Below are positions 5,522 to 33,384 of a stretch of 33,953 nucleotides of DNA, piece after piece (positions within the stretch are counted from its first letter, which is position 1; each line of letters starts with the position of its first letter). Under the pieces are notes generated by a model. It had not been told where the DNA came from, did no database searches, and worked only from the letters and a program-made list of their open reading frames with translations. Source of the DNA: a virus (Duplodnaviria; Heunggongvirae; Uroviricota; Caudoviricetes); IMG/VR virus record IMGVR_UViG_2534682338_000010, positions 1-33,953 of that record. One strand, given 5' to 3'. The translations under genes and the position numbers were made by a program.

Positions 5522-6205
5522 TTAAACGTATCTCATGCGCGATTTAATGTGCTTATTAATGTTCTTAAGCATCATTTCCTCGTTGCTTTCCCACGATCCT
5601 AGCGTCGAATAACGAGTAGAAATTTTATCCGACTTAACGGCAACAATTCGCTTACTCTGTTTCTGTGTGCGTTTCTCTAAGCGACGTTTTGCCACCGCCG
5701 ATCCATTCTTAGCGCGTTTGGTTCTGGATTTCTTAGGCTTGTACTTCTTCATGATAAAAGTCCCTTCCTTATTCTCTACCTTGATGAAGTTGCCATTTTC
5801 GATGTTACGCATCATCTTACCGCCTTTGATGGCCTTAATGTTCCCGTGGGCGTCTAAGACCTTACCGTTAGCGATTGGCACTAGCTTATTGATTTTGCCC
5901 CCATCGAAATAGTGTTTCAGATAGTCGTCCTGACTGCCGATCTTCTTGTCCTTATCCCTTGCGCCCTTAATGAAGATTTGGTGTCTCGTCCCTGAACGGT
6001 TCTTGTAGTTGGTATTACCTACAGCTTGCTGAGTCCAGCGAGTAGGTCTATCAACATTCTTGTTAATCTTCTTCTGTAGTGCACGAGCAGCAAAGATCGC
6101 CCCTTCCCCTATCGCCCTTTCGAATGTATCGGTTGCCTTTTCAGACCATTGCCGTAACGCTTTCTTAGTCCTTAGAGCGTTTCGTTTATTGGTACTGGTT
6201 GCCAT
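5522..6205 (-). CDS. hypothetical highly basic (Lys/Arg-rich) protein
   Basis: 227-aa ORF; very basic composition suggests nucleic-acid binding; no motif recognised. Confidence 0.55.
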   Translation of the reverse strand: MATSTNKRNALRTKKALRQWSEKATDTFERAIGEGAIFAARALQKKINKNVDRPTRWTQQAVGNTNYKNRSGTRHQIFIKGARDKDKKIGSQDDYLKHYFDGGKINKLVPIANGKVLDAHGNIKAIKGGKMMRNIENGNFIKVENKEGTFIMKKYKPKKSRTKRAKNGSAVAKRRLEKRTQKQSKRIVAVKSDKISTRYSTLGSWESNEEMMLKNINKHIKSRMRYV

Positions 6206-6206
6206 G

Positions 6207-6377
6207 TTAGCCCCCTAATAACGAAAAGACCCCCGCCAGTGTCCTTAGCAATTGTTCATCCACGGTCATAGCCGGGAGTTCAAGCCCAAAGGACGTTAGC
6301 AGAGGTCTAATTGCTACGTTATAAGTGAGGGCGACAATCAAGAGATAACCAAAATATTTCTTAAGTTTATTCTTCAT
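6207..6377 (-). CDS. small membrane protein, holin candidate
   Basis: ATG preceded by AAGGGGTGA; about 56 aa with one hydrophobic helix (YFGYLLIVALTYNVAI); track ORF begins at an upstream TTG (6449). Confidence 0.4.
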   Translation of the reverse strand: MKNKLKKYFGYLLIVALTYNVAIRPLLTSFGLELPAMTVDEQLLRTLAGVFSLLGG

Positions 6378-6396
6378 ATATTCACCCCTTTTATTA

Positions 6397-6675
6397 TTAT
6401 TTTTGTCTGAGTAAATCGATAACTTGGTCAAATTTAGCGTCCATCGCAACCACTTTCTTTTCTATACCGTGAAGGGTTTGTTCCATGCGATAAACTCTCT
6501 CGGCGATCTGGTCGTGGTTATTCTGCATTGTTTCAAACTTCTGATTAAACAATGCATCATTGGACTCTAATTTCGACAATCTATTTTCTGTGGCTAATTG
6601 ATTTCGGTGAAGTCTCCATAATCCACCACAAATTAAGGCGATAACACCGATACCGCCATATATAATTTCAGTCAT
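6397..6675 (-). CDS. membrane-anchored coiled-coil protein (i-spanin-like or holin-like)
   Basis: N-terminal TM segment GGIGVIALICGGLW followed by a heptad-like hydrophilic domain; sits in the lysis module. Confidence 0.5.
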   Translation of the reverse strand: MTEIIYGGIGVIALICGGLWRLHRNQLATENRLSKLESNDALFNQKFETMQNNHDQIAERVYRMEQTLHGIEKKVVAMDAKFDQVIDLLRQK

Positions 6676-6720
6676 TACGCCCCCGATATTTTTATATAGT
6701 TTAATGGCAAAATTATTTAG

Positions 6721-6762
6721 ATAAAAATAATCCCGCCTAACTCAAAAGAATTAAGCGGGATT
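6721..6762 (-). terminator. intrinsic terminator after the J-like gene
   Basis: inverted repeat AATCCCGC / GCGGGATT with a U-tract on the minus strand. Confidence 0.5.
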
Positions 6763-6780
6763 TATTATTAAAATTAAATT

Positions 6781-9700
6781 TTAAGAAACAGTAATACCGG
6801 TAGTTGCTTTTTTAGTTACCATTACCGTTAAATCACTGATCCATGTGCTAGGCGTCCAGTTGTTGATTGCGCTTGATTGCACTTCAAAGGTCAAGGTCAC
6901 AGCACCCTTACCCGCTGGCATATCAATAACACCTGAGTAAAGACCAGTATTACCGCCATACGCCCTATTATACAACTCTGACCCATTCTTACGAACAATC
7001 AGGCGACAGGTGTCGTAATAGGTATTATTGTTCGACCCTTCACGCGCTCGCAATCCACCAAAACTAACAGCCGGAATAACGATTTGACGATCGAACTTGT
7101 GATCATCTTCAACGCGAACAGTGACCGTTCCCTGTGGATAACCAGCATAACCATTATCAACGTTAACATCACGATGCGGGAACTTACGTCCAATCACCTT
7201 AACGAAATCACCCTTAACCTGAGTAGCTTCAAGCATACCCTTAATAACACAGCTAGAGTTAATCGTGACGTTGTTCAGAGTACCAGAATCAGCAGTGATA
7301 TTACCTTTAACGGTTGCATTCATGAACGTAGCGGACCCGTTCTTGTTGATATGCCATCCGGTGGACCCGTTCCAGTTGGAAGACTGGATATAGTTACCGA
7401 TTTTAGCGTTATCAATTGCACCGTTTACGATCTTCGCGTTAGTGATTGCCCCGTCCTGAATCTTCGCGCTGTTAATTGCAGCATTGCCGATTTTAGCCGT
7501 GGTAATTGCCGCATCATTAATCTGGGCTGTACCAATTGCAGCATTACGAATCATCGCATTATCGAGATAAACCTTGTTACCTTCGATACCAAACGGGCAT
7601 ACTTCCGATCCGTTCTGTGGAGCTACCGCGATTTTATCAGCATTAAAGATGATTCTCGTCGGTTGTGCCGGATCGTTGGTTGCGCTCATGTGAATACCAG
7701 CCACGCGACCATCTGCATTAACCGCCAGATTATATTTGCTGTTAATGGTTCCCTTCAAAGCATCGATTTTTACATCTGCTTCCTGATTCACGCCAGCAAT
7801 CTTGCCATCCATTTCTACCCGAACTTGATCAATCTTGCTTGCGCTTGCTGCCTCACTGGTAGCAATTGCTTGTTTCAGGGTAGTAGCAGATGCGCTAACT
7901 TCTTTGGTGATATCGCCTTTCAATTCAGCTTTAACCTGGTCGATCTTAGTGGAACTTGCTTGATCACCAGAGACAATCAGACTCTTGAGAGTATCGGCTG
8001 AGGCTTGCACCGTCTGCCCTGTTTCTGTAGTGATTTGCTTATGCATTGCATCAATTTTAGCATCGGCATTAGCGCCAGCTTGAGCAATAGCATCAGCGAT
8101 GGTTTCATCTAAGCGATCTTGTAAACCAATCAGGTCTTCCAGTGCTTCTTTGTCCTGATCGTCCCAGCTAATTGTAGATCTCATTTGCATGAAATAAGGT
8201 TCAGACCAAACAGCATCATCCATACCGAAAATATCGTAATGTGCCGCACGAAGATAATAATCACCATCAGCCAAATCAAAGGAAGTATGGCTAACACTAT
8301 TCGTGCTTACTGCCCTTGCATCGGAGAAAGTGTTATCGGTTGCATACTGGATGATTGACCCTGCATAATCATGTTCTACGTCATCTGCCCAGCTAACAAA
8401 CACACTATTAAAGCCACCACGCGCACTAAAACCTTTCATTGGCTTATGTTGTGGGTTGATAGCCACTAAACGCGCTGGGGCGCTCTCTGAGTTGTTATAG
8501 CCCTTAGCCGATACTTCTACCGTCAGTTGACGCGAAAGGCCGTTAAACTGGTTCATATCAAGCGTATAAGTCCATGATTCAGGATCGCGGGTACGGTACT
8601 GAATAGACTTACCAGCCTTGTTAGTCACCTTGATAATGTATGCTTCAAACAGGTCACTAAACTTGTTAGTTTCACCGTTGATCTCAACATCTAAGCCTTG
8701 CTGGTTTTCCCATTCGATAATCAGATCATTACCTTCGAAAGTTCCTGGCGTGCTACCCTGATTTTTGATTCGAATAACCGGAGTCGGCAATTCATAGGTA
8801 ACAGTCGGATTCTGGTTAATCAGTTCTACCCAATCGGATCGAGCGATGATACCGAAAGCACAAACTCGGTAATCATAAGAGCGATCTTTTGCCAGTGCAT
8901 TGACACTGAAAATTTGCTGTGAAGTCTGTCCCAGCTTAATCCAGTTAGGCGATCCACTTACACGGTAATCAATCTGGAAGCCGTAGCGGTTAAAATCTTC
9001 CGGTGCATCCCATGTCAAAGTAACGTTTTTACCGTAAATCGTCTCACCAGTTGCCTTAATCCTGAAATTAGTAGGCTTCTGTACTGTCATTGAATCCGGT
9101 AAACCACTTGGTCTATTGTCTGGAGTTGCCGCATAGTTCAGGTCAGTATAAACCTGAGAATTATATTCTGTGGCGGTGATCGTCATCATCCCAGCAATAC
9201 CAGAATCAATCGAGCGGTCAATTGCAGTAATACGCCAAAGTGAATTATTCAGTTTTAATTCATCATAGGTTACGCTGATAACGTCCCAAACTTCGGCAGT
9301 GAATGCGTCAGTAGTCATAAAGCTGATAACCTGAGTGATACGAGATTTATTTCGCTCAATGCTCGCGAGTTTATCAATCTGATCTTTAGACTTAACGAAA
9401 CGATATTCTACATCCTTAGCAATAATTCGACCATCTGCGCGAACAGTAGCATCGTTTTCAGCATCAGCCGGATAACGTAGCATTTGCTCTGAATAGTCAA
9501 TTGATGGTTCTTGATACATCGCGTTAATGGTATTGAAATAACCGTTAGTGCCACCTGTTTTCAGTGATACCTTACCCATCATGATATTGTCTTCATTGAA
9601 GGTATGCTTAACAATATCAGGAGCATCCAGTTTCAGCGTAATACGTCCAAAGGATTCGAACATCACCCCGCCGAAAGTCTGCATAAGATTAGTCAAGTTC

Positions 9701-21114: not shown

Positions 21115-21537
21115 TTAAAAACGCGCTAGATAAGAAAATTTAAGGCTAAGTGTCCCAACGATACCACCATCACTAGAATCATCGTCATAATCGGTATTAG
21201 AAGCTACTGGAGTGATATCTGAAATTGAGAAGCCCAAATCTTTAAAACGTGGGTTATCCGGCTGAATCTGGATTATCTGGCAAATACCCTCATGAATTTT
21301 CGTTTCATGAATCTGAGAATATAACTGCATTTCGATAACGCATTCAGCTTGCATTGCATTACCGCCACGGACCCTAGTGTAAGTCTCATTCATTCCGGTG
21401 ATCCAACAAACCACGTCATCACTAAAGCCTTGCTGAGTTTGTTCTACGTTTAAAGCCAGACCTAAATCTTGTTCGATAATATCCTGCAAGGCGCGTTTGA
21501 TTTTCAGTCTAGGCATATTATTAACGGTAGCGAGCAT
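21115..21537 (-). CDS. head-tail joining / tail completion protein
   Basis: ATG at 21537 preceded by AGGGGG with 6-nt spacing; overlaps the upstream gene end by 17 nt. Confidence 0.45.
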   Translation of the reverse strand: MLATVNNMPRLKIKRALQDIIEQDLGLALNVEQTQQGFSDDVVCWITGMNETYTRVRGGNAMQAECVIEMQLYSQIHETKIHEGICQIIQIQPDNPRFKDLGFSISDITPVASNTDYDDDSSDGGIVGTLSLKFSYLARF

Positions 21538-21811
21538 GTGTACCCCCTGCCAGAGTGATAAAGCAATCAGTTGTATTGTCACCATTGCGCTTAACGTATT
21601 GAACTTTGAAACGCTGATTTTCTACAGTGACAATATCACCCTGCTTTAAGTCTCCCTCACGACAGAATAGAAATTCTGTTTCTGTCATTACCCCTTGTTC
21701 GTCGGTAGTAGTAATTTCATGATAAGCACGAATTGATTTACCACCTTCCACCGAAAATACAGGAGCACTTCGGAACATTCTTGATAATTGTGATTCTGAT
21801 AATTTGAACAT
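21521..21811 (-). CDS. head completion / head-tail adaptor protein
   Basis: 96 aa; AAGGGGG SD 5 nt upstream of the ATG; first gene after the capsid terminator. Confidence 0.45.
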   Translation of the reverse strand: MFKLSESQLSRMFRSAPVFSVEGGKSIRAYHEITTTDEQGVMTETEFLFCREGDLKQGDIVTVENQRFKVQYVKRNGDNTTDCFITLAGGTHARYR

Positions 21812-30517: not shown

Positions 30518-30985
30518 TTACAGCATATCTAAGCCTTCATCGTAACCGTAGAAGCCATTCTGAGAAGAGAAACAGATTGGAGCGTAGTCGTCGTCATCTT
30601 CGTCTTGTTCATCGCGTTCTGGTGCTTTCTGAGCGGTTTCTTTGCCGTAGTTAAACATTGCTTCATCCAGTTCATAGACAGTAACGAAGCTACCTAAATC
30701 AATGTCATAATCACGGACTTCGAAAGGCAGGTCATCACGAACAATGATTGCTGGAATGTTCTGGTATTTCAGGCGGTCTTCATCGGTGAAGCAGTTAACA
30801 ACAATGGTCGGCTTCTTATTACGGCAAAACGCATAACATGCACTAGAGAAATGGGATTCATCGGAATTGAAAAGGATGTTATAACCACGTTCACGGAACA
30901 TCTTCATTAACTTGTCATTGTGGAAGCTATCAGCATCAAAACCTAACAGGATGAAAGGAGTAGTGGTAGTCATTTTATGGTTCAT
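30518..30985 (-). CDS. hypothetical early protein with strongly acidic C-terminal region
   Basis: 155 aa; AGAGGA SD 8 nt upstream; C-terminal ERDEQDEDDDDY. Confidence 0.6.
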   Translation of the reverse strand: MNHKMTTTTPFILLGFDADSFHNDKLMKMFRERGYNILFNSDESHFSSACYAFCRNKKPTIVVNCFTDEDRLKYQNIPAIIVRDDLPFEVRDYDIDLGSFVTVYELDEAMFNYGKETAQKAPERDEQDEDDDDYAPICFSSQNGFYGYDEGLDML

Positions 30986-31388
30986 AGTGGAAATCCTCTA
31001 AAAGAAAGTGAATCAAAGTAATTCTGATATTATTTATAAGAGAAAATTCTTGATGATTTTGGAAGGGATTGTTACTCACTTCGTTCGTTTACTAGAATCA
31101 GTTATCATCTGGTATTAAATCCCTTTCTAAGAAAATCCTTTCAAAAGTGATTCTCGATGCCACGCAGTGGCGTCGCAGACGTTTGGGAGTGAGCGAAGCG
31201 AGCGAGCAAACTAGTTAATTCCTTCTAAGATCATCTAGTTTAAATTAGTGTTACTAGAAGTAATTGGTTAGCGCTTCGCGCAGTCGGGCTACGCCCTCCT
31301 AATATCTTTTTGGTTATTTGTTGTTTTTGGTTTTACACATGAGCGTAGCGAATGTGTTATATAATATCTATGCACGCCCGATTCCCCG

Positions 31389-31630
31389 TTTTGCCCCTCA
31401 CTAAGTTAATGTTTTATAAAGAGTTTTTCTCACAAATCCTTTTCGGGGGCAAATTTCAGGGGCAAAAATTAGATTTTCAGGGGCAATTATTGGCATTTCA
31501 GGGGCAAAAATGAGGGGCAAAATCACTGTTTCCCAGAATTTCAGGGGCAAAAATAGTAGGTTTCAGGGGCAAAAATGGGATGTGGAATCTAGGGGATTTT
31601 GGTTCAGGGGCAAAATTCGGGGGCAATTTT
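31389..31630 (+). repeat. iteron-like array: 9 direct copies and 1 inverted copy of GGGGCAA(A/T)
   Basis: direct copies starting at 31445, 31459, 31480, 31501, 31514, 31544, 31566, 31607, 31619; inverted copy at 31389-31397; several have the extended form TTTCAGGGGCAAAAAT. Confidence 0.8.
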
Positions 31631-31667
31631 CATAGTGTAGGGCTAGTGTAGGTTTGAAAATCCTTTG

Positions 31668-31696
31668 TTGACACTGTGTAGGATCGGTGGTATACT
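31668..31696 (+). promoter_or_regulatory. near-consensus sigma70 promoter P1
   Basis: TTGACA (31668-31673), 17-nt spacer, TATACT (31691-31696). Confidence 0.55.
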
Positions 31697-31724
31697 TGAA
31701 AATTCGAGATAAATATTTTATAAT
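31696..31724 (+). promoter_or_regulatory. near-consensus sigma70 promoter P2 (tandem with P1)
   Basis: TTGAAA (31696-31701), 17-nt spacer, TATAAT (31719-31724). Confidence 0.55.
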
Positions 31725-32145
31725 ATTTGTATTGAAAGTGAAAATTTACCGATTTTCCTTCCTATTGTTATCACCGTGTTAAATTGTTATATGTCTGTGA
31801 AGATTTGGATCTGAGAGAAAATCTTGTAACAAATCTTTACAATTCATAGCTCAATTAATGCTCACCGCTTTAGCAAAAAGTGCTATGCCTTTTTCTAAAT
31901 TGATTGAATATACATCAATTTGGTTAAATCGTGTTCTTCGCTTTAGCAATTCGTGCTGTGGTTTAACACATTTAACACGTCTGATAACATCTGAATAACA
32001 TTTTAACATATCTCTGTTATAAATACATATATAAGAGATAAATGTGAGGGGTTGAAAAATAAAATACAATCCCCATATAAATAATAGTGAGCGGTTAACG
32101 CTCTTTTTTAAGAAATCATTAATCCACATTGTAGGAGGATTCGAG

Positions 32146-32328
32146 ATGGCACGACCTGTTAAGTTCACTCGCGAAATCATCTTAGAAATGGCTAAACGCT
32201 ACTTTGAGTTAACGCCGGGTGTGAGAATTGAAGAGTGGTTTAAAAATGAGGGCATCGATAAATCAACCTTTCATAAACTGCTAAAACGATATGACATTAA
32301 AGTGAAGATTGAAGCTACCGTTTGGTAA
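32146..32328 (+). CDS. small DNA-binding protein (paralog of the 28777 gene)
   Basis: 60 aa MARPVKFTREIILEMAKRYFELTPGV...; AGGAGGA SD 6 nt upstream. Confidence 0.65.
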   Translation: MARPVKFTREIILEMAKRYFELTPGVRIEEWFKNEGIDKSTFHKLLKRYDIKVKIEATVW

Positions 32329-32442
32329 TCAACTTTGACTGAGAATTATATGATGGCTTTAAAAAAGAAAAAGCCTCCCTTGTTGCAGCAAAGGAGGCTT
32401 GAAATGAACAATTAAAACTAACTTTCCACAGGAGTATTTATA

Positions 32443-33384
32443 ATGTTATTTTCCGCTAACTTTTTCACTAACGAAGTAACCAACGCTAAAGCAGTTATCA
32501 AATTTGGCACCGAAGCAAACAAGAAGATTCAGCCGAAAGTTGTTGCTCATGTTTCCTTTGCGCAGCAGAAATCCGCCTTCGCTGGCTTTAAAGCACATCG
32601 TGAAGCACTGATCGCGGCTGGCTTTGGTGTTGACGGTAAACTGCCTAACGGCATTCGTAAAGCAATCGACCGCGTTAAACCTGCTAAAGACGTTGCAGTA
32701 GACCACATCGTTACTTTTACCGTTAAGAACTCTTCTGAACTGTTCCACCTGGTTATTGCTGGTGATACTGCTATCGTTTCCGCTCCTAACATGGATTTTC
32801 AGGATACCGCTGATTGCCAGATCACCTTCGGTCGTCGTAAAGAAGTTACCGGAAAAGCTAAACTGAACTTCACTAAATCTGGCAATCCTTACTTTGCTGT
32901 TTTCTTTAACAGCCACGCTACCGAAAAAGAAGTTGTAGAACTGGTTGCTTATGAAGGTGAAGAGAAAGAACGTATTGAATCTTGCGAAGCATTTCTGGAA
33001 CTGGAAGCACAGGTGAATGCTGTTTCTCCGGTTGTTGAAGATCGCTTTGCTGCACTGGAAGCACAGATCGCAGAACTGAAAGCTGCACTGGAAGAAAAAG
33101 ACCAGATTATCGAAGCACAGAAAGCTGAGATTGAAGAACTGAAAGCTAAAGAAGTTGCTCCGGTAGCAGTAGTTGAAAACGCGGCTGATGAGGCCGCAAA
33201 TGATGAAGTAGAAGTGAAAATCGATGTGATGCGTGATCCGATGGCTGCACTGCAATTACTTCGTTCTTTTAAGGGCAAATCTCATTTTTCTAGTGATGTA
33301 GAAGATGAGGAAGAAGAACAGAAACGCAATGCTGCAATGCTTCATGATGAAATGTACGGTACTAACTTTTCTTACTGCCAATAA
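32443..33384 (+). CDS. abundant early-type protein with central coiled coil and acidic C-terminal region
   Basis: 313 aa; codon usage strongly skewed to high-expression codons (CTG, GAA, AAA, CGT, GGT); coiled-coil segment LEAQIAELKAALEEKDQIIEAQKAEIEELKAKE. Confidence 0.7.
   Translation: MLFSANFFTNEVTNAKAVIKFGTEANKKIQPKVVAHVSFAQQKSAFAGFKAHREALIAAGFGVDGKLPNGIRKAIDRVKPAKDVAVDHIVTFTVKNSSELFHLVIAGDTAIVSAPNMDFQDTADCQITFGRRKEVTGKAKLNFTKSGNPYFAVFFNSHATEKEVVELVAYEGEEKERIESCEAFLELEAQVNAVSPVVEDRFAALEAQIAELKAALEEKDQIIEAQKAEIEELKAKEVAPVAVVENAADEAANDEVEVKIDVMRDPMAALQLLRSFKGKSHFSSDVEDEEEEQKRNAAMLHDEMYGTNFSYCQ

Follow-up and report, generated by a model that had tools for sequence, protein, structure and literature searches.

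A phased direct-repeat array and its putative cognate protein in an Escherichia coli prophage: a candidate replication origin

The closest described counterparts of the element reported here are the iteron origins of theta-replicating plasmids and phages, such as R6K gamma ori with pi, P1 oriR with RepA and lambda ori with O (reviewed in PMC4980987). The element is an array of short direct repeats at positions 31441–31630 (+ strand) of a viral DNA stretch of 33,953 nucleotides, the IMG/VR record IMGVR_UViG_2534682338_000010 from position 1 to 33,953; this whole stretch, hereafter the window, corresponds to a chromosomal Escherichia coli prophage of ~36 kb that splits hicB. The gene of p313, a protein of 313 residues (32443–33384, + strand), lies 0.8 kb to the right of the array, and its co-variation with the type of array points to it as the cognate binding protein. 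With iteron origins it has in common direct repeats placed at multiples of the helical turn; AT-rich DNA lies beside them, and an adjacent specificity protein is encoded downstream of a promoter; p313 would moreover read the repeats through its N-terminal domain, as lambda O does. Unlike in those systems, p313 belongs to no known initiator family, the cores are short (6–16 bp) and numerous (5–16), there are no DnaA boxes, a leader of ~400 nt and a small helix-turn-helix (HTH) gene separate the promoters from p313, and the origin is a putative one.

Three further systems bear a more partial resemblance. In the PLE satellites of Vibrio cholerae, allelic N-terminal domains of RepA are matched to iteron origins (PMC8263062, PMC7145576); there, and by our reading here, related mobile elements exchange the DNA-binding domain of an initiator together with a repeat array, and specificity co-varies. 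PLE RepA, however, is a member of the RepA_N family acting on three semi-palindromic repeats of ~30 bp, whereas p313 is an orphan associated with short direct repeats, and the specificity of PLE RepA is experimental whereas that of p313 is deduced from co-variation. In SaPI origins, 6–12 short iterons surround an AT-rich centre and are specific to the Rep of each island (PMC9371898). Two of the repeat types described below (D and E) likewise show in-phase clusters flanking AT-rich spacers. The Rep of SaPIs, in contrast, is a helicase that loads itself and has a C-terminal winged-helix domain, and its ori is found just downstream of rep, while p313 is devoid of an ATPase domain and has its array upstream; the array of the window, of type A, also lacks an internal AT-rich spacer. 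Finally, oriE of phage T4 has evenly spaced 12-nt iterons whose role in T4 is still unproven (PMC3016281). It shares with our locus short direct repeats at even spacing, and T4 likewise has a gene for a UvsW helicase, but we found no relationship in sequence or protein, and T4 brings its own replisome.

The repeat array and its conservation

The array consists of nine direct units with the consensus TTTCAGGGGCAAAAAT and the core GGGGCAAAA, recognised by a motif scan and by conservation in relatives. Their 16-nt registers are 31441–31456, 31454–31469, 31475–31490, 31496–31511, 31509–31524, 31539–31554, 31561–31576, 31602–31617 and 31615–31630. Four copies of the long form TTTCAGGGGCAAAAAT are exact (31454, 31496, 31539 and 31561), and near copies start at 31441, 31475 and 31602. 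The shorter motif GGGGCAAW starts on the + strand at 31446, 31459, 31480, 31501, 31514, 31544, 31566, 31607 and 31620, and has one copy on the − strand, at 31390–31397; the latter is part of the single inverted copy TGAGGGGCAAAA (31389–31400, − strand), which stands ~45 bp to the left of the array with an AT-rich stretch in between. A sequence-only reading of the window had described nine direct copies and one inverted copy of GGGGCAA(A/T) within 240 bp of non-coding DNA, and our scan reproduced this count: the window holds 13 matches to the motif against 1.8 expected, a number reached by 0 of 100 shuffles, 10 of the 13 fall within 240 bp, and elsewhere in the 34-kb window the motif does not exceed chance.

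The start-to-start spacings of the nine units are 13, 21, 21, 13, 30, 22, 41 and 13 bp, as previously listed save for two values, 14 and 12, each off by one. From these spacings most sites had been placed on one face of the DNA. This proved true mainly of the long form: the six long-form units, spaced 21/21/43/22/41 bp, have a vector strength of 0.90 at a period of 10.5 bp (p ~0.006), while all nine units reach 0.61 (p ~0.02; best period 10.7 bp), because the remaining three sit 13 bp from a long-form unit and form doublets with it. The helical phasing of the array is thus real but partial.

The non-coding gap that holds the array extends from 30986 to 32145 (1160 bp). Our E. coli tallies cover 5426 complete genomes, and the gap is matched by 57 E. 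coli records; no annotated feature lies under it in any listed row of these records. Since, in addition, the indels that distinguish relatives are not confined to multiples of 3 (whole-unit losses of 22, 58 and 66 nt, and a 1-nt indel inside a 109-aa open reading frame (ORF) of the gap), we consider the gap to be non-coding.

The array is kept in 15 close relatives, with a copy number that varies from 6 to 9 through the loss of whole units. In three of the 15, the sequence that directly follows the last unit on the right, together with the promoters, has been swapped for an unrelated module; the right-hand promoter module of the window will be called R1, and the one that replaces it in relatives with the same array type R2. 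The inverted copy is found in most relatives, including the Salmonella locus L100 and also L099 (loci of relatives are given by such labels), and it is degenerate in L005, L067, L023, L043 and L045. The array of L100 is collinear with that of the window, its spacings being 13, 21, 22, 13, 30, 22, 43 and 13 bp. Between these two arrays the cores are 90% identical and the spacers 68% (Fisher p = 2.6e-4), therefore selection appears to act on the repeats themselves. That the repeats bind a protein on roughly one face of the helix, as first proposed from the spacings, is supported by this difference between cores and spacers and by the relatives' other repeats, which keep spacings of 11, 13 and 21–23 bp.

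A protein that co-varies with the array

At the same position, between the genes p155 and p60, and within the same gene order, relatives carry at least six types of repeat. Type A (GGGGCAAAA, 6–9 copies) is found in the window and in L067, L059, L100 and L099; type A2 (TTTCACGGACAAAAAT, core CACGGACAAAA, 9 copies) in L098, from Salmonella; type B (AGTGTAGGTTT, 7–9 copies) in L085, L088, L089 and L090; and type C (GGAATCTTGGGGATTT, 5 copies) in L087. Type D, in L091 and L092, has ~16 copies of CGGGGA, mostly 11 bp apart, and type E, in L097 from Proteus, has 15 copies of CTAGGGAT, 11 bp apart in three clusters that are separated by two start-to-start gaps of 54 bp holding AT-rich spacers. In both D and E, in-phase clusters flank AT-rich spacers of ~45 bp (start-to-start gaps of 51 and 54 bp), and as a whole the arrays of other sequence keep spacings of 11, 13 or 20–23 bp. 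The distant relatives were obtained by a second protein search followed by contig look-ups.

In a tblastn matrix of seven E. coli loci, the only sequence that followed the type of array was that of the first ~180–185 residues of p313. The large terminase subunit TerL, p201, p86, the N- and C-terminal domains of the Rha-like protein, p155, p60 and both halves of the small terminase were all independent of it. Type-A arrays were paired with a type-A N-terminal domain in 33/33 E. coli records, 25 of them with the right-hand module of the window between the two and 8 with the other one, and type-B arrays with a type-B domain in 18/18; one partner alone was seen only in an IS3-associated deletion and in one further partial remnant. 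The pairing also holds across four genera, in a graded manner: N-terminal domains 76% and 55% identical to that of the window go with the same core, GGGGCAAAA, and one that is 36% identical goes with a related but distinct core, CACGGACAAAA. Similarly, a type-B domain (62–66% identical) comes with the same AGTGTAGGT core in a prophage of Providencia, in spite of a TerL with no more than 56% identity to that of E. coli. The ~300 bp to the left of the array are inherited together with the array type, and the promoter/leader module and p60, which lie between array and p313, are not.

Since the pairing survives recombination in the DNA between them, the array and the N-terminal domain of p313 are probably a functional pair. 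We infer from the co-variation that the array is the DNA target of p313, which would bind it through the N-terminal domain, and that the array, with the ~300 bp to its left, and this domain make up a swappable split specificity cassette with at least six putative allelic types. The IS3 deletion mentioned above is that of L086 (E. coli 14EC029; 6122–8048), where an IS3 element stands in place of the array, of p60 and of the beginning of p313 while the rest of the prophage is intact, and which is thus a natural deletion mutant of the cassette.

p313 comprises a beta-rich N-terminal specificity domain (~1–180), a coiled-coil helix (182–236), an acidic linker and a short C-terminal tail. An AlphaFold model of low overall confidence (mean predicted local distance difference test score, pLDDT, of 59; ~75–85 for residues 30–120) shows the N-terminal domain as beta-rich with two helices, followed by the 55-residue helix 182–236, disordered acidic sequence and a short helical tail. 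Searches against Pfam, PHROG, NCBIfam, PADLOC and PDB returned nothing beyond coiled-coil noise, with no HTH or peptidase match; fold searches with the model gave nothing specific; and no similarity was detectable to Rep_3/winged-helix proteins, to lambda O or to any known Rep or initiator family. Among 1.84 billion representative proteins (a 50%-representative library) p313 has 12 relatives, and pattern scans for more distant ones in viral, genome and metagenome collections found nothing. The six types of N-terminal domain are mostly not alignable to one another, while the coiled coil and two alternative tails are shared.

Two side observations concern the ends of these proteins. Most members of the p313 family end in AA (KAA, YAA, FAA). 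In relatives, the p313 homologue is followed by an extra gene of 80–333 aa whose product always ends in LRLVA or LRIVA (L085 8330–8572, L059 12075–12446, L087 9230–10090, L091 7891–8892); the window does not have it. Both kinds of ending could be degradation tags or docking motifs.

Origin, operator or another kind of site

We favour the reading in which the array and p313 are the replication origin of the phage and its initiator, and would give it a probability of about one half. Many copies of p313 would bind the direct repeats through the N-terminal, sequence-reading domain and be held together by the long coiled coil, so that protein and DNA form a complex along one helical face. Expressed from the rightward promoters upon induction, in the manner of cro-O-P in lambda, p313 would load on the repeats, open the adjoining AT-rich DNA and recruit host replication proteins.

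Several observations argue for this. In the ~36-kb prophage we could recognise neither a known initiator nor a polymerase, primase, helicase loader or CI-like repressor, and the only replication-type gene is that of the UvsW-type helicase, so that p313 is left as the one candidate for initiator. The repeats are direct and spaced by 11 or 21–23 bp, as in iteron origins, and their motif is not found above chance elsewhere in the window. The most AT-rich 40–50 bp, a possible unwinding element, lie at or near the array, and the clusters of types D and E flank AT-rich spacers like those of SaPI origins; stretches of at least 85% AT directly adjoin the array in all R2-type loci, and in the window such a stretch lies 60 bp away and coincides with the promoters. 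Swappable modules of initiator domain and iterons are already documented in PLE satellites (PMC8263062). The order of promoter, small HTH gene, hairpin and p313 also resembles PR-cro-tR1-O of lambda. A broader claim, which we hold more tentatively, is that p313 and its relatives are a new family of sequence-specific repeat-binding proteins and the sole phage-encoded replication initiator of widespread, uncharacterised temperate siphophages of Enterobacterales; the family would have given rise to six or more specificities of origin and initiator, passed on between phages as a split cassette.

Other results weigh against an origin. No homologue of p313 was found on plasmids or isolated phages. 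Neither a DnaA box (TTWTNCACA) nor an IHF site (WATCAANNNNTTR) is conserved beside any of the array types; sites for host factors are not universal among iteron origins. A scan for GATC next to the arrays found nothing conserved either. GC skew follows the orientation of the genes and does not mark the array. Arrays of 11-bp repeats around a short AT-rich core also describe autoregulated sites of the ParR/parC type, and, with the array in the one divergent control region of a phage without a recognisable CI-like repressor, a regulatory role would explain the same co-variation. A dual role, with an initiator that also autoregulates, is compatible with both readings.

Of the alternatives, the one that survives best, although we consider it doubtful, is that the array is the operator or silencing array of a lysis-lysogeny switch, and p313 its master regulator and immunity determinant. 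Made from constitutive rightward promoters, p313 would coat the repeats and silence (or activate) the leftward operon of p155, Rha, terminase and structural genes, and the six repeat types would be heteroimmunity groups. The position of the array suits this, with the lytic operon leaving to the left and the p60-p313 operon to the right, and so does the allelic diversification of a protein together with its sites, which is typical of immunity regions. Strong sigma-70-like promoters, in tandem, would drive p60 and p313: TTGACA-17-TATACT at 31668–31696 and TTGAAA-17-TATAAT at 31696–31724 (+ strand), both identified as consensus matches. The left flank specific to each array type could hold the regulated leftward promoter. 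Yet no leftward sigma-70-like promoter was found at or inside the arrays. From the array to the strong rightward promoter there are 40 bp in the window, ~200 bp in L091 and ~550 bp in L097, and the promoter module is freely swapped under one array type, which disfavours a promoter-proximal operator. The repeats are all direct, and there are no secondary operators elsewhere in the window. As to the proteins, p313 has no known repressor architecture (no HTH or peptidase match, and a domain modelled as beta-rich), and regulation could fall to the small HTH proteins p60, p86 and p201 or to the Rha-like protein, whereas p313 is without a competitor for the role of initiator. One E. coli strain, BS74R-D, is a double lysogen of the same type with identical p313 and p60, a state that classical immunity allows but does not favour; the case is not decisive.

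Repeat-coating autoregulators offer a precedent for such an operator. In parC/ParR of plasmid R1 and in omega-type autoregulators, phased direct repeats of 7–11 bp, sometimes flanking an AT-rich core, are cooperatively coated by a small oligomeric protein. Our chromosomal element, in contrast, lacks a partner NTPase; the sequence of p313 is not that of a ribbon-helix-helix protein, and we could detect no promoter in the spacers.

Phased iteron arrays with allelic cognate proteins are as such an already known kind of system. What is new is the p313 protein family, the prophage family in which it acts and of which no member is in culture, the organisation as a split cassette, and six natural specificity types that include very short units spaced by 11 bp. 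The pair is precise and can be tested cheaply, with residues 1–180 of p313 against the six repeat types. If p313 were the initiator, a new family would join the short list of origin-binding proteins, together with natural orthogonal pairs of protein and site; if it were the immunity determinant, it would be a new kind of repeat-coating phage repressor and would define the heteroimmunity groups of this prophage family.

The remaining readings are much less probable. A centromere-like partition site, or a repeat acting at the RNA level as a protein sponge, is very improbable. Phased 11-bp direct repeats and a coiled-coil protein do recall parC/ParR, but all 61/61 places in complete E. coli genomes are chromosomal, 0 on plasmids, and no ParA- or ParM-type NTPase was found in the ORFs scanned. 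Short motifs repeated in a transcribed leader would likewise recall RNAs of the CsrB type, but the array lies upstream of the promoter-like sites, is less structured than its shuffles (z = +1.75 and +1.82 on the two strands) and has no Rfam match at the gathering score.

Binding by the small GRP/HTH paralogs p60, p86 and p201 (60, 86 and 201 aa), which the sequence-only reading had named as candidate binders, is more improbable still. The three are real paralogs, with a common N-terminal RGRP/ARP motif and an HTH-like C-terminal segment, and p60 (32146–32328, + strand) is the first gene to the right of the array and has a weak HTH_Tnp_1 match. They nevertheless assort independently of the array, which the N-terminal domain of p313 follows in every case. 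Identity to the p60 of the window is 86% in type-B and type-C phages and falls to 66% in a type-A phage; for p86 and p201 it is 65–98% across all types, unrelated to array type; and the p60 gene travels neither with the array nor with the p313 domain. p60 is therefore not the specificity partner of the array.

The weakest reading, a cosB- or pac-like recognition region at which a small terminase would position the gpA-type large terminase, we rejected, since the type of the small terminase does not follow the array but the region upstream of its own gene. It had some appeal, since the large terminase is of the lambda gpA type and its small subunit Nu1-like, and with one inverted and several direct copies around an AT-rich stretch that loosely recall R3-I1-R2-R1 of lambda cosB/gpNu1; the AT-rich stretch even has TTAATGTTTT(T)AT in common with the lambda I1 segment, a resemblance that we dropped as unsupported by an IHF consensus or by terminase co-variation. 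The N-terminal HTH of the small terminase is independent of array type: its identity is higher in a type-B phage (84%) than in a type-A phage (77%), and 47–49% in others; its gene is ~2 kb from the array, on the other strand; there is no IHF consensus; and the GC-rich patch at the would-be cosN, 31371–31400, is the most variable part of the alignment. Among the three candidates put forward from the sequence (replication origin, terminase recognition region and regulator array), the origin thus now leads and the regulator array comes second. Whichever of the two holds, what the sequence alone most readily suggested, a role for the small HTH proteins or for the terminase, has been corrected.

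Unlike in lambda cosB, then, the repeats neither co-vary with the small terminase nor adjoin its gene, while a separate upstream region does co-vary. The Nu1-like small terminase gene (phrog_57, E = 3e-11) lies on the − strand just to the right of the window, at the end of the prophage. Its N-terminus, in three HTH types over six loci, co-varies with the 200 bp upstream of the gene, because of which we place the real packaging recognition site (cosB), most probably, in these 200 bp, as in lambda. The small terminase gene (L067, 23283–24350 region) is ~6 kb from that of the large terminase, with oppositely oriented genes between them.

Further elements of the gap and of the prophage family

The array of the window also contains sites of other types that had been overlooked, one of type C within its 41-bp gap and two to three of type B after its end. 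The type-C-like site, GTGGAATCTAGGGGATTTT (31582–31600, + strand), fills the gap of 41 bp and has the motif that forms the 5-copy array of L087. At the right edge of the array, AGTGTAGG occurs twice (31633–31655, + strand), with the motif that forms arrays of 7–9 copies in L085, L088, L089, L090 and L095, and a third type-B-like site, GTGTAGG, at 31676–31682, falls in the spacer of the first promoter, P1. Neither kind is kept in the Salmonella type-A array (L100), and the type-C site is for this reason probably a remnant of recombination. We read the type-B and type-C sites as scars of array-swapping recombination; alternatively, they may reflect cross-talk between co-resident prophages.

The tandem promoters overlap the most AT-rich stretch of the gap, 31691–31750. 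They are followed by an untranslated leader of ~400 nt, which ends in a terminator-like hairpin with a T run (32089–32103, + strand) just before the 60-aa gene, with a visible equivalent in relatives. A second conserved hairpin lies between p60 and p313, at 32371–32400. Promoters, leader and the two hairpins together suggest control by attenuation or antitermination, or a separate non-coding RNA. In the leader, CTGTTATAAATA (32014–32025 and 32076–32083) contains the consensus of T4 late promoters, TATAAATA; it is also found directly upstream of the first gene of the structural operon of phage DCP80 (L070, 1256–1267), and relatives with the alternative leader module have TATAAATAC in it. These recurrences may be due to chance in AT-rich DNA.

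On the other side, the left flank of the array (31140–31440) carries GC-rich mini-hairpins of the types GCGAAGC, GCGTAGC and GGGCTACGCCC in AT-rich DNA, and ends in 40 AT-rich bp next to the array. The mini-hairpins of 31140–31360 (also at 31074–31090) have GAA, GTA or TTC triloops and include a further type, GCCACGCAGTGGC. Either strand of 31060–31365 is predicted to fold more stably than its shuffles (z = −2.5 and −3.0). ACTCACTTCGTTCGT, CGGGCTACGCCCT and CATGAGCG(A/T)AGCGAATG recur in the distantly related DCP80 (L070, 440–900), ahead of its terminase operon. The cluster might be a late-operon leader or consist of single-strand DNA signals. Compared to most E. coli relatives, the window is without ~225 bp at the left end of the gap (31003), which in those relatives contain more mini-hairpins, such as CAACCGAAGGTTG and TCCCGAAGGGA.

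The prophage begins at its left end with a serine integrase and the UvsW-type helicase on the + strand. A block on the − strand completes a full set of virion and lysis genes, with those for lysis, tail and head, a lambda-type portal and the gpA-type large terminase, and to the right of the latter there are two small GRP/HTH genes (+), then the Rha-like gene, p110 and p155 (−). p155 (30518–30985, − strand) is the left border of the non-coding gap and opens the leftward operon p155, p110, Rha-like, which heads towards the terminase and structural genes; beyond the gap, p60 and p313 follow on the + strand. ARAGORN predicted a 91-nt tRNA-Glu(ttc) at 21260–21350 (+ strand), inside the − strand ORFs 21115–21585; Rfam has no tRNA there, and the call is probably a false positive.

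Prophages of this family, which has no isolated, sequenced representative, occur in ~1% of complete E. coli genomes, and members were also found in Salmonella, Providencia and Proteus. Relatives are integrated in ycdX or in a cytosine permease gene (annotated in the record as partial 'cytosine permease'). The GC content of the prophage is ~42%, against ~51% for E. coli. Near and distant DNA searches with the 1160-bp gap gave no match in isolated phages and plasmids, and we found nothing relevant in the literature on the prophage family or on phage DCP80.

The nearest large terminase, 43% identical, is that of DCP80, of which the first 24 kb are a syntenic structural module. This Escherichia phage (L070, PQ671644.1) is the closest isolated phage record and was inspected over 1–50000. 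Its first 24.5 kb (1–24.5 kb) are a lambda-like siphovirus structural module, syntenic with the prophage at 30–45% amino-acid identity, which is joined to the T4-like genes motA, ndd and endonuclease VII; rIIA is present twice, in opposite orientations. The record may be a chimeric assembly rather than a single genome.

The double lysogen E. coli BS74R-D (NZ_CP063332.1) carries two complete prophages of the family, in ycdX and hicB (L093 and L094). The two have identical p60 and p313 but different terminase and Rha proteins, as might result from gene conversion between prophages residing in one cell.

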